Positions 5,319 through 8,086 of a DNA stretch of 32,000 nt are shown piece by piece. Numbering within the stretch: the first letter of the stretch is position 1; the number at the start of each line of letters is the position of its first letter. Under the pieces are notes generated by a model, which was not told where the DNA came from, searched no databases, and saw nothing but the letters and a program-made list of their open reading frames with translations. The DNA lies in assembly GCF_000007985.2 (NCBI RefSeq), contig NC_002939.5, forward strand, positions 810,001 through 842,000, read 5' to 3'. The translations under genes and the position numbers were made by a program. Source of the stretch: Geobacter sulfurreducens PCA. GTDB lineage: Bacteria; Desulfobacterota; Desulfuromonadia; Geobacterales; Geobacteraceae.

Positions 5319-5366
5319 GTAGTTGATTTGTTGACTTTCTGTCTAGTTGCCCAACAAATCAACTAC
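5319..5366. repeat. perfect 15-bp inverted repeat with an 18-nt loop, overlapping the helicase stop codon
   Basis: GTAGTTGATTTGTTG (5319-5333) and CAACAAATCAACTAC (5352-5366) are exact reverse complements. The right arm contains the TAG stop (5363-5365) of the 907-aa gene. On the mRNA it is followed by TTCCTTTC. Confidence 0.8.
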
Positions 5367-8086
5367 GCCCCCCTAGTCTTCACCCCTCCACTGACCGGCA
5401 TAAGGCCACGACGGCTAGCGAGAAGAGCGGCGTCCTTTGGGTTGGCGCTACGGCGGAGGCCCTTTAGAACACTCTGTTGCGTCTCGGGCGTCCAGAAGAT
5501 CCGCAGACGCTCACGTGCACGAGTTACGGCTGTGTAGAAGATGCTGTGTGTAATGTCGTCTTCATTGGCATCGGTGATTACGATCTTGACGGAATCGTAC
5601 TCGAGGCCCTGCGCCTTGTGGATCGATACGGCATAGGCCACTTGGAATGGTACACTGGAGTTCAGTGAGTCGTCGTCCTCATCGCTGGTGTCATCGTACT
5701 CGTAGACGGAGAAGCGCACTGTCGAGTCAACCACCCATTCGAGCTCATCACACTCGACATCGAACTCGCTGAGCGGTCGATCGAGCTTGACGTCGAATTG
5801 AATCCGACCAGGGGCGTGGGCGATGCCGACGATCCAGCCCTTTAGGTTGTTATAGATCACCGGGCGGAACCGCTCGGTCTCGTGGAATAGGACAGGGTCA
5901 CCGATCTTATATGTGGACTCGCGCCAAGTGGTCGCAGTACCGGGGTTGCTGCTCTGCAGAAATCGATTGATGTTGTTGATACCATAGAGGCCGTCGTAGT
6001 TCAGGCACAGGATAATCTCGTCCTGCCCTTGGGTCTCAAACAGCGTCTTGTCGAGTGCGGTCGAGTACCCGTTGCGGGCCATGACCTCGGCGATGTCGTC
6101 TTCGATGGCTCGAACCTTATTCCAGAAGCCCAAGAGTGAGTCATTCTTGGTTCTGAAGGGCGTCGTCAGCTCGAACACCGACGTGCTCGGGATGAATGAA
6201 CGAATGATTCCGAACCAGTTGCCGAACTCGATCGACTCGATCTGGTAGACGTCGCCGACGAGTACGAGCAGCTTGAAGGAGGTCTTCTCCAGTACCTTGA
6301 TCAAGTCTGCGTTGCTCACGGTGCTGCACTCGTCGATGATGAGGAGGTCGTAAACCGGATCGGTGGTTCTCCTGGAGATCTGGCTGCTGATTGTTCGGAA
6401 GGCCGAGTTCTGCGCGGTTACCTTGCGTTTGAGGTTGTCGATCGCTGGGTGAGTGTGCGCGAGGAAGAGTTTCGCTTTGTCGTTAAAGTAGTGCGCGATG
6501 TGGTCCACCATCGTTGACTTGCCAGTGCCAGCCGCCCCGTAGATCAGGGCGACACGCGACTGGCTGAACAACTGTTTGAGTGCATCCTTCTTCACCTGGT
6601 CGTCAATGCTACGAGATGTCTCATCGAGCCAGCGCTCGACGGCTTGGGTGTAGCCGGCGATTCCGGCTGATGCATGCTCCTGGAGCTTCTCAACGATGGA
6701 GACTGTGTCGTTCTCATACCCGGAGATGAAGACGTGCCCCTTGTCGAGCACGAGCCGGCGCTCCGGATGCTTGTAGTAGAGCTTGTTGTTGTAAGTGGAG
6801 ATCAAGCCGTTGACGTTTCCGAATTTCTCGAGCTCAACAACTGGCGTGTAGAGAATTCCGTGACGCTCCACATTGTTCCTCACGCATCGAGCGAGCAGTT
6901 CGTGGTTCCGATCGGTTGCATCGAGGCTCTCGACGAGGTCCCAGTACCTGGGGTTGTGCCCCGGTAGCGAGGTACAGAACGGCATGGTGTCAAAGGGGAT
7001 GCAGCCGAACTGAAGTTTCATGTCGGAGAGAAGGTAACAGCCGCCCTGGAGGTGCTGCGGCTTGAGGATCTGGTTATGCATTCGTAGCATGAGATAGCGG
7101 AGTACGTTGTGACCCGGAGCGGCTGATCTCACAATGTGGCGCACTTCATCCAGTACGGGAAAGACCTGTGATTTGGTGGCGTCACCCGTACCTGCTGTCC
7201 TTACCTGTGTGTACTTATCGTCGGGCATATCAACCAGGTCGAGCAGATTGACGGAACTCTTAGTCAGCCCACGCATCAGGTAGCGATACTCCACCGAGCT
7301 GGTCCGCACGTCTAAGGTGATGCCCAGAAGGCGCGCGAAGTTTTTAAATTCGCACGGGCGGATAGAGACCTCCCACTCGCGGACGATTGTGATCGGCATT
7401 GTCTGGCCGAGCACTTCGATTGAGTCGCGCTGGAGCGTCAACATGGCCGCGTACTTGTCAGTCATATCGATGTAGCTGAAGGCAATGATACGGTCGAACT
7501 TGTTCACCTTGTCGACGGCGCGGTAGAAGGTGACTTCGTAGTATATGCGCCCGCCGACGAAAAACGGGCGCGTTTTGTGGATGTAATACCTGTCGCGGAT
7601 GCTGCTGCTTGGTCGAGATGAACGGACTGCCTCAATTCTTGCTGCTATCTTTTCTTGGTACTCCTGCAGCGACGGATCGAGGTCGACCGGGAAGGCCTCG
7701 AGGTTCGCCAGCACCGTAACTCCACAGTTGTCTTGAAGCAAGCTACGGACGCGGTGGAGGTACTCGTAGTACTTAAGCATCAAACGCTCGGAAGCGTCCC
7801 CGTCCAGGGTGTAGTGGGACACACTTTTCTGAATCAGTTTATGGAACTTGCCGAGGAAGTTGAATCTTGCCTCACTCTTGACGAAGGCGAGTGCCGGTTC
7901 TACTGCGGCGTAGTTGAATTCGGCATCGGGTGAGCCCGTGTGGAGACGGACCGCAACTCCCTCGACTAGGTTCCGGAGCTGTGCGAGAACATTTTGGGAG
8001 AGCAATGCCCGCTGGTCAGCGAGCGATTCGATATTCCGACAGATCGCCTCGTCAGCGCTCTGGATCTGCCTGCTGACCGTAGTCAT
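5363..8086 (-). CDS. 907-aa protein: unassigned N-terminal region of about 500 aa fused to a RecD/Dda/Pif1-like SF1 DNA helicase core
   Basis: Motifs seen: Walker A IYGAAGTGKST (aa 515-525), Walker B LLIIDECS (581-588), LVLVGDVYQ, TTPFRT, an SH3-like insert (IGDPVLF...YNNLKGWIVGI), SIHKAQGLEYDSV and YTAVTRARERL. Together these are the RecD2/Dda-type motif set. Residues 1-500 show no P-loop, HUH/3H relaxase, NERD or nuclease motif I can recognise. GGGAG lies 10 nt upstream of the ATG. Confidence 0.85.
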   Translation of the reverse strand: MTTVSRQIQSADEAICRNIESLADQRALLSQNVLAQLRNLVEGVAVRLHTGSPDAEFNYAAVEPALAFVKSEARFNFLGKFHKLIQKSVSHYTLDGDASERLMLKYYEYLHRVRSLLQDNCGVTVLANLEAFPVDLDPSLQEYQEKIAARIEAVRSSRPSSSIRDRYYIHKTRPFFVGGRIYYEVTFYRAVDKVNKFDRIIAFSYIDMTDKYAAMLTLQRDSIEVLGQTMPITIVREWEVSIRPCEFKNFARLLGITLDVRTSSVEYRYLMRGLTKSSVNLLDLVDMPDDKYTQVRTAGTGDATKSQVFPVLDEVRHIVRSAAPGHNVLRYLMLRMHNQILKPQHLQGGCYLLSDMKLQFGCIPFDTMPFCTSLPGHNPRYWDLVESLDATDRNHELLARCVRNNVERHGILYTPVVELEKFGNVNGLISTYNNKLYYKHPERRLVLDKGHVFISGYENDTVSIVEKLQEHASAGIAGYTQAVERWLDETSRSIDDQVKKDALKQLFSQSRVALIYGAAGTGKSTMVDHIAHYFNDKAKLFLAHTHPAIDNLKRKVTAQNSAFRTISSQISRRTTDPVYDLLIIDECSTVSNADLIKVLEKTSFKLLVLVGDVYQIESIEFGNWFGIIRSFIPSTSVFELTTPFRTKNDSLLGFWNKVRAIEDDIAEVMARNGYSTALDKTLFETQGQDEIILCLNYDGLYGINNINRFLQSSNPGTATTWRESTYKIGDPVLFHETERFRPVIYNNLKGWIVGIAHAPGRIQFDVKLDRPLSEFDVECDELEWVVDSTVRFSVYEYDDTSDEDDDSLNSSVPFQVAYAVSIHKAQGLEYDSVKIVITDANEDDITHSIFYTAVTRARERLRIFWTPETQQSVLKGLRRSANPKDAALLASRRGLMPVSGGVKTRGA

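Follow-up and report, generated by a model that had tools for sequence, protein, structure and literature searches.

A stand-alone RecD2-type helicase gene of Geobacter sulfurreducens PCA matches the candidate phage defence family PDC-S53 over its full length

Phage defence candidates (PDCs) are 145 candidate systems that were recognised by guilt-by-embedding, in BREX, DISARM, Type I restriction-modification (R-M) and Hma systems (bioRxiv 10.1101/2024.01.29.577857), and they entered PADLOC expressly as candidates (Payne et al., bioRxiv 10.1101/2024.01.29.577857). We analysed a 32,000-nucleotide stretch of Geobacter sulfurreducens PCA (contig NC_002939.5, positions 810,001 to 842,000; hereafter the window, in whose numbering coordinates are given), in which a 907-amino acid (aa) open reading frame (ORF) at 5363..8086 on the reverse strand encodes a helicase. 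An original prediction for this ORF had proposed a role in defence or against mobile elements and had suggested PADLOC as a check. When PADLOC was run, the protein matched model PDLC05035 (PDC-S53) with E=0 and 1389.9 bits, residues 1-895 aligning with positions 1-896 of a profile of 900. Further PADLOC matches, to PDC-S68, type IV RecD, Nhi, AbiO and GajB, were found only on the motor. By its sequence, the helicase is a full-length member of an already catalogued candidate family, and the idea of a defence function is therefore not new. The accessible part of the supplements to the PDC preprint does not name PDC-S53, and a later study that tested seven PDCs and one HEC, eight candidates in all, does not include it (PMC12881386). 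Neither PDC-S53 nor a comparable helicase that has been characterised turned up in our literature search, which also found no published function, domain description or mechanism.

The coding sequence is complete, begins with ATG and is the longest ORF of the region. Since the protein matches the 900-position hidden Markov model (HMM) from end to end and has full-length homologues (67-87% identity to the helicase among the best 80 relatives), we regard the gene as real. A ribosome-binding site (GGGAG) was read about 12 nt 5' of the ATG, within a 391-bp intergenic region upstream of the gene (8087..8477, reverse strand). The helicase probably has its own promoter within this region, and a consensus promoter scan of 8087..8477 gave no convincing match. 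The ORF encodes an intact RecD2-type superfamily 1B (SF1B) helicase preceded by a 495-residue N-terminal half without a known fold. The ORF, its translation, Pfam and Foldseek all agree with the predicted 907-aa SF1B (RecD/Dda-like) helicase at 5363-8086.

The motor occupies residues ~500-880, with a RecD2-like SF1B core at 5447..6589 (reverse strand) that includes an SH3-like 2B insert and an acidic loop. Pfam matches to AAA_30, Viral_helicase1, AAA_19 and UvrD_C_2 were all confined to residues 500-866, and a PDB sequence search returned RecD, RecD2 and Pif1 only, in each case over the C-terminal motif region. The motifs that had been predicted were all present in the translation: GAAGTGKS (Walker A, residues 517-524; 6515..6538, reverse strand), IIDECS, VGDxxQ (which reads VGDVYQ), SIHKAQGLEYD and YTAVTRAR. 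SF1B motifs I, II, III, V and VI were present, including the Walker A lysine, the DE pair and the arginine finger. The full-length AlphaFold2 model (pLDDT 83.2, pTM 0.77) gave 122 PDB matches in Foldseek at E<=1e-3, with RecD2 (3gpl) as the best (E=7e-21, TM 0.68 normalised to the target), followed by RecD of RecBCD, Pif1 and Dda. Nearly all of the matches listed were RecD, RecD2, Pif1 or Dda, and a few were TraI, Dna2, Helitron and SARS-CoV-2 helicases. The same search of the full-length model showed likeness to the SF1B domains 1A, 2A and 2B, and a beta-rich segment of the model at residues 718-795 is consistent with the predicted SH3-like insert.

Across an alignment of 61 divergent members (34-64% identity), K523, D585, D612 and R856 were invariant, and E586 and Q615 were kept in at least 90% of the members. 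The ATPase/translocase is therefore under selection. Its polarity, taken solely from membership of the SF1B family, is presumably 5'->3'. The NCBIfam RecD2 model (TIGR01448) scored 105.1 bits, against an equivalog cut-off of 500 that a RecD2 orthologue would exceed, and it covered residues 449-869 only; the NCBIfam RecD match was also far under its cut-off. The acidic loop at residues 797-812 (5651-5698, reverse strand) reads DDTSDEDDDS and follows the SH3-like insert, ahead of motif V. The net charge over the 21 residues 795-815 is -8, and an acidic DxDDDS pattern was seen again in close homologues. Speculatively, this loop could mimic DNA or serve autoinhibition.

The N-terminal half had been predicted to lack an assigned motif over about 500 residues, and Pfam, NCBIfam and PDB searches place no family or structure on residues 1-495. 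An AlphaFold2 model of this module, built with 57 homologues (mean pLDDT 86.3, pTM 0.81), had zero Foldseek matches against PDB and BFVD at E<=1e-3. In the model the module divides into four subdomains, all encoded on the reverse strand. Subdomain A (residues 1-156; 7619..8086) is a helical bundle with no family or fold match. Subdomain B (residues 162-241; 7364..7603) is a five-stranded beta domain (strands 162-177, 180-189, 200-204, 213-225 and 228-240) and is tentatively an oligonucleotide/oligosaccharide-binding (OB)-like barrel. Subdomains C (residues 244-344, alpha-rich) and D (residues 345-495, mixed alpha/beta) lie together at 6602..7357 and have no known fold or significant match. Weak Foldseek matches recurred to bacterial single-stranded DNA-binding proteins (SSBs), PriB, RPA70N, baculovirus LEF-3 and phage SSB/DUF3127/DUF669 proteins, over ~100 columns and with E values of 0.03-1. 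As the Foldseek output gives no query coordinates, we infer that these matches belong to residues 162-241, and the beta domain is tentatively called OB-like.

Several residues of the module were conserved in the family, including R38, E42, S90, H91 and Y106 in subdomain A, Y168, Y183, E184, K196 and Y212 in subdomain B, R243 and E246 directly after it, and N327, Y331, Q344, F365, P369, H377, E396, N433 and H440 in subdomains C and D. The mean pairwise identity was 31% in the module, evenly over its four parts, versus 44% in the motor; the N-terminal module evolves faster than the motor. A profile of residues 1-495 found 1097 cluster representatives (50% identity) at E<=1e-3. In the top 150 of these, fragments aside, the module was always N-terminal in a protein of ~900 aa, and its fusion to the motor is fixed. 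A possible zinc finger (C362/C371/H377) was dropped because C371 is not kept in divergent members. A relaxase, primase, initiator or nuclease identity of residues 1-495 was also rejected, as nothing significant was found in Pfam, NCBIfam, PADLOC, PHROGs, PDB sequence and profile searches, or Foldseek against PDB and BFVD. The same searches found no NERD, PD-(D/E)xK or HNH fold and no second NTPase fold. Sequence and fold searches thus agree with the predicted lack of relaxase and nuclease motifs, and the suggested fold check returned no relaxase, primase or initiator that would place the gene in a conjugative or replicative element.

The neighbourhood of the gene was compared by all-against-all ORF clustering of 81 loci. 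No non-overlapping neighbour family occurred in more than 9 of the 81, and the larger clusters were shadow ORFs inside the helicase gene; the conserved housekeeping context that had been named as evidence against a defence role was absent. The helicase is a stand-alone unit in the clade of the window protein. The lack of an obligatory partner, which is the habit of the single-gene system PDC-S53, held in these 81 loci, while a distant phage-borne clade has recurrent flanking genes. When the neighbours in the window (proteins of 97, 310, 200 and 188 aa and both pieces of a small ORF) were searched by tblastn, no homologue was found in 80 loci. The 310-, 200- and 97-aa genes upstream were accordingly set aside as local neighbours, and the proposed link between the helicase and the interrupted small ORF was rejected.

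Defence genes recurred near the helicase in some loci. Upstream neighbours included Type I R-M subunits, Type IIG enzymes, matches to the PbeA model and mad2, and downstream neighbours included Avs3 (Avs), JetA/JetB (Wadjet), SduA (Shedu), DruA (Druantia), PDC-S02 and integrases. The order in one locus (L019) is hsdR, hsdM, hsdS and then the helicase, whose start falls at the hsdS stop codon; in a second (L046) the genes hsdS and hsdR and then a 116-aa ORF precede it on its own strand; and three others (L032, L054 and L074) have the same layouts as judged from ORF size only. In a further locus (L008) it lies between a PD-T4-1-like/restriction endonuclease protein and OloA of Olokun. Embedding in or beside defence systems, the basis on which PDCs were defined, was seen in L019, L046 and L008, and the neighbours in the window offer only a marginal WYL protein. 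The neighbours in a Comamonas locus were an H-NS gene and remnants of a Mu-like prophage.

A pattern scan that took one genome from each of 185,579 species gave relatives in at least 466. The best 80 relatives, with 63-85% identity over the N-terminal module, came from Desulfobacterota, Gamma- and Betaproteobacteria, many Actinomycetota, Cyanobacteriota and Melainabacteria, Bacteroidota, Nitrospirota, Planctomycetota and one Clostridia metagenome-assembled genome (about seven phyla); carriers include Streptomyces, relatives of Geobacter and cyanobacteria. The GC content of the helicase gene was 35-63%, compared with 42-72% for the hosts (L007-L086), being below the flanks in high-GC hosts and above them in some low-GC hosts, and it was more than 2 points off the distant flanks in 62 of 67 loci. 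The helicase gene in the window has 53-57% GC and lies within a low-GC island at ~1600-10600 in a genome of 63-69% GC. The compressed and deviant GC content is the signature of repeated horizontal transfer, and the gene moves between phyla without an obligatory partner. Across the assembly collection, 85 index blocks record the identical 907-aa protein (L001-L006 and the window), each time with the same setting behind a chemoreceptor gene, and the contigs that carry it usually end just beyond the helicase, at an insertion sequence (IS). With 85 records and a constant context, the host is therefore a frequently sequenced one in which the island is stable.

The PDC-S53 match, the variable context and the defence genes recurring nearby all agree with the defence or anti-mobile-element role that the original prediction had offered as a candidate function. 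We lean towards reading the protein as a mobile, stand-alone, single-gene anti-phage or anti-mobile-element DNA helicase in which the N-terminal module would select the DNA substrate. The N-terminal module would then be the part for specificity and loading. It would recognise intermediates of the invader that contain single-stranded DNA (ssDNA), for example replication forks, D-loops, rolling-circle or packaging intermediates, or else a protein that these carry, possibly via the conserved aromatic and basic residues of the beta domain and its direct surroundings. As the effector, presumably moving 5'->3', the motor would unwind these intermediates or strip proteins off them, and the replication of the phage or plasmid would collapse, with nucleases of the host possibly digesting the ssDNA that is exposed.

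Several points weigh against a defensive role of this kind. No experimental report on any PDC-S53 member was found in the literature, and an effector that consists of a motor only is unusual among defence proteins. The identity of 63-87% across phyla exceeds what fast-evolving immune genes typically show. Ordinary metabolic genes are the neighbours in many homologous loci, the recurrence of defence neighbours is a raw observation, uncorrected for background, and the window's own neighbours had no PADLOC system match except for the marginal WYL. The OB assignment comes from non-significant Foldseek matches (E of at least 0.03), for which the covered query residues are not reported.

A bolder form of the favoured reading can be stated, in which the protein is a nuclease-free immune protein and an OB-like-barrel sensor for invader ssDNA or protein-ssDNA licenses a RecD2-type motor to dismantle replication structures; we hold this specific form to be unlikely. 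If it were true, the mode of defence would be distinct from degradation, toxin-mediated abortive infection and nucleotide depletion, and the strong conservation over about seven phyla would mean that the target is an invariant feature of replication and not a fast-evolving phage protein.

The alternative that survives best treats the protein as a selfish helicase, similar to Dda or RecD2, that would be an accessory of mobile elements and help the prophage, plasmid or island carrying it to replicate, recombine or become established. In PHROGs, residues 2-346 matched phrog_325 'Dda-like helicase' (E=4e-17), and since this match covers the N-terminal module, phage-borne members of the same architecture therefore exist. 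Homologues were carried by 67 viral contigs of IMG/VR (31-52% identity to the window protein) and by two isolated phages. A 10.7-kb plasmid of L. plantarum has the gene directly after the rep initiator and a DUF536 gene on the same strand, a position that keeps a role as a replication accessory alive, and a Methylotuvimicrobium plasmid also carries a homologue. However, the family is scarce on mobile elements, being found in 2 of 50,697 phage records and 7 of 72,556 plasmids. In both phages the gene lies outside the replication module, is divergent from it and has R-M or methylase genes beside it. In Erysipelothrix phage phi1605 one flank holds a Type IIS R-M system, Dam and a recombinase and the opposite flank the early genes, and in Terrisporobacter phage TPDSL_ph1 it adjoins two methyltransferases and is divergent from the replication module (polymerase, SSB-like protein and exonuclease). 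Most of the 80 genomic loci also had no replication or transfer genes nearby, and several were inside R-M operons. We regard a selfish role as rather improbable.

The phage and IMG/VR clade (L087-L156) has recurrent flanks. A protein of ~280-314 aa with no assigned family, apart from a weak phrog_6948 match, is encoded directly upstream of the helicase in 44 of the 70 loci with a median gap of 16 nt, and a Cro/C1-type helix-turn-helix protein (HTH_26) of ~74 aa is encoded directly downstream in 37 of the 70. These flanks are possibly due to synteny alone because the phages are related to each other. The helicase and its two flanking genes may thus form a three-gene cassette in this clade or may simply reflect phage synteny.

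Characterised single-protein helicase defences, such as Nhi and Hna, usually carry a nuclease. By this precedent, the protein could be a helicase-nuclease of defence whose N-terminal module hides an unrecognised nuclease or metal site. It would then resemble Nhi or Dna2, with the helicase feeding invader DNA to its own nuclease. Candidate residues are H91, E184, E246, H377, E396, N433 and H440, and several His, Glu and Asn residues were kept in at least 85% of the 61 members. A PDB profile search also gave a match to a 'nicking endonuclease' at residues 417-471, but its E value of 0.08 is non-significant. No nuclease was matched in Pfam, NCBIfam, PADLOC or PDB sequence searches, Foldseek found no nuclease fold in the confident model, and the PADLOC Nhi match lies on residues 497-651 of the motor only. 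We therefore give a cryptic nuclease little credence.

It is very unlikely that the gene encodes a housekeeping DNA-repair helicase as a paralogue of the host's RecD2. The motor is nearest to RecD2 and RecD, and databases often label the homologues 'ATP-dependent RecD-like DNA helicase', but the RecD2 score is far from its equivalog cut-off, relatives occur in few species (466 of 185,579 by the pattern scan), and the gene has a variable context, a GC content foreign to its hosts and near-identity over phyla that does not follow phylogeny. A conjugative relaxase-helicase (TraI/TrwC/TraA type) or a fusion to a replication initiator or primase is effectively refuted, as the weak NCBIfam TraA/TraI matches (E 1e-8 to 1e-16) are limited to residues 465-652 of the helicase region, no TrwC/HUH Pfam match was found, Foldseek returned no relaxase, primase or initiator fold, and no conserved transfer genes are nearby, although a TrwC relaxase is one downstream neighbour in one locus.

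Two perfect hairpins had been predicted 3' of the helicase, and both were confirmed. One is a 15-bp inverted repeat with an 18-nt loop at 5319..5366, which overlaps the stop codon of the helicase, and the other is a 15-bp inverted repeat with a 2-nt centre at 5262..5293, 28 nt upstream of the ATG of the small ORF, and may act as an operator or as a terminator. The 120-nt stretch at 5258-5377 (reverse strand), which spans the stop codon and the sequence beyond it, folds with -63.1 kcal/mol, compared with a median of -35.3 and a minimum of -60.1 in 68 homologous loci, and a fold of 175 nt has a third GC-rich hairpin between the two perfect repeats. Conservation of both hairpins as a family trait was rejected, since other loci give chance near-matches only; the hairpins are locus-specific.

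Downstream of the hairpins is the 5' remnant of the small ORF (5101..5234, reverse strand; ~45 codons), which is cut by an IS3-family element at 3754..5100 (reverse strand). This element has orfA at 4675-5037 and orfB at 3788-4678, matches Pfam rve, rve_3, HTH_21 and HTH_Tnp_1, and bounds the locus downstream. Its ends at ~3754 and ~5100 were read from imperfect terminal repeats, no target-site duplication was found at the element, and assemblies of the same genome break there. No homologue in the 80 related loci joins the 5' remnant, which starts at 5234, to the frame at 3406-3759, and it is plausible that the two are one interrupted gene. The part of the original prediction that an IS cuts a small ORF therefore stands, and the joining of the two halves gained no backing from a homologue or a target-site duplication.

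The predicted HEPN, WYL and IS neighbours fared unequally. The IS was found, and the WYL assignment is marginal: the 97-aa ORF at 10111-10404 (reverse strand), between a chemoreceptor gene and the island, matched WYL with E=0.0045 in PADLOC and E=0.1 in Pfam. The HEPN assignment had no HMM support. The 188-aa ORF concerned (2638-3204, reverse strand) has an N-terminal CxxC...CPCPKC motif resembling a zinc ribbon and a C-terminal RRNKIVH motif (Rx4H, HEPN-like), and no HMM match backs HEPN for it. Two abutting genes of 41-49% GC (8478-10013, reverse strand) immediately precede the helicase and share its strand; they encode a 310-aa protein without a family match and a 200-aa protein whose hydrophobic stretches, as read in the sequence, resemble several transmembrane segments. 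Neither gene had a Pfam, PADLOC or PHROG match, and the pair could be a separate two-gene module in the island. A frame in the intergenic DNA that precedes the helicase (~8300-8470, reverse strand), which reads KRAGHLFQRR to a stop and further on ILVEAAEY, is one that we take, from these letters, to resemble a degraded fragment of an IS200/REP-associated tyrosine transposase.

If the family is protective, it is a compact 2.7-kb single-gene system that is already at work in very different bacteria, and possibly a broadly portable tool. Its recognition module of 495 residues without structural precedent, in a protein with no obvious killing domain, would then represent an unusual branch of helicase-only immunity. 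If it is not protective, it is a widespread mobile helicase. The gene in the window adds an instance to a family already flagged by PADLOC and brings no surprise in kind.

Among described systems, PDC-S53 is the closest, with an end-to-end profile match, the same single-gene habit, a place in or beside defence systems in some homologous loci and no structural difference. RecD2 of Deinococcus radiodurans (3gpl, 3e1s) and RecD of RecBCD share the SF1B motifs and the 2B/SH3-like insert (Foldseek E 7e-21 to 1e-18, target TM 0.57-0.68), but the window protein is not a RecD2 orthologue (105 bits against 500), has ~450 extra N-terminal residues, and is encoded by a horizontally mobile gene outside any RecBCD operon. 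Nhi and AbiO are single-protein SF1-helicase anti-phage factors whose PADLOC models match the motor with E ~1e-10; the likeness is confined to residues 497-657, and the nuclease domain of Nhi is absent. The PADLOC model of NERD fused to UvrD matches residues 800-868 only, and no fused nuclease of the Nhi, NERD or PD-(D/E)xK kind was found. Dda of phage T4 and Pif1 share the SF1B fold (Foldseek E 1e-10 to 1e-13), but the matched chains have ~380-450 residues, about half of the window protein, and no PDB chain matches residues 1-495. The name of PHROG 325, 'Dda-like helicase', is an annotation of phage-borne members and not functional evidence. TraI and TrwC resemble the window protein in having a large extension N-terminal to a RecD-like SF1B helicase domain, but the HUH relaxase domain at their N terminus is absent here by HMM and by fold. 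As the original prediction had held, the protein is not an obvious TraI/TrwC relaxase, Nhi-type enzyme or NERD-helicase, and the models of these systems touch its motor only.

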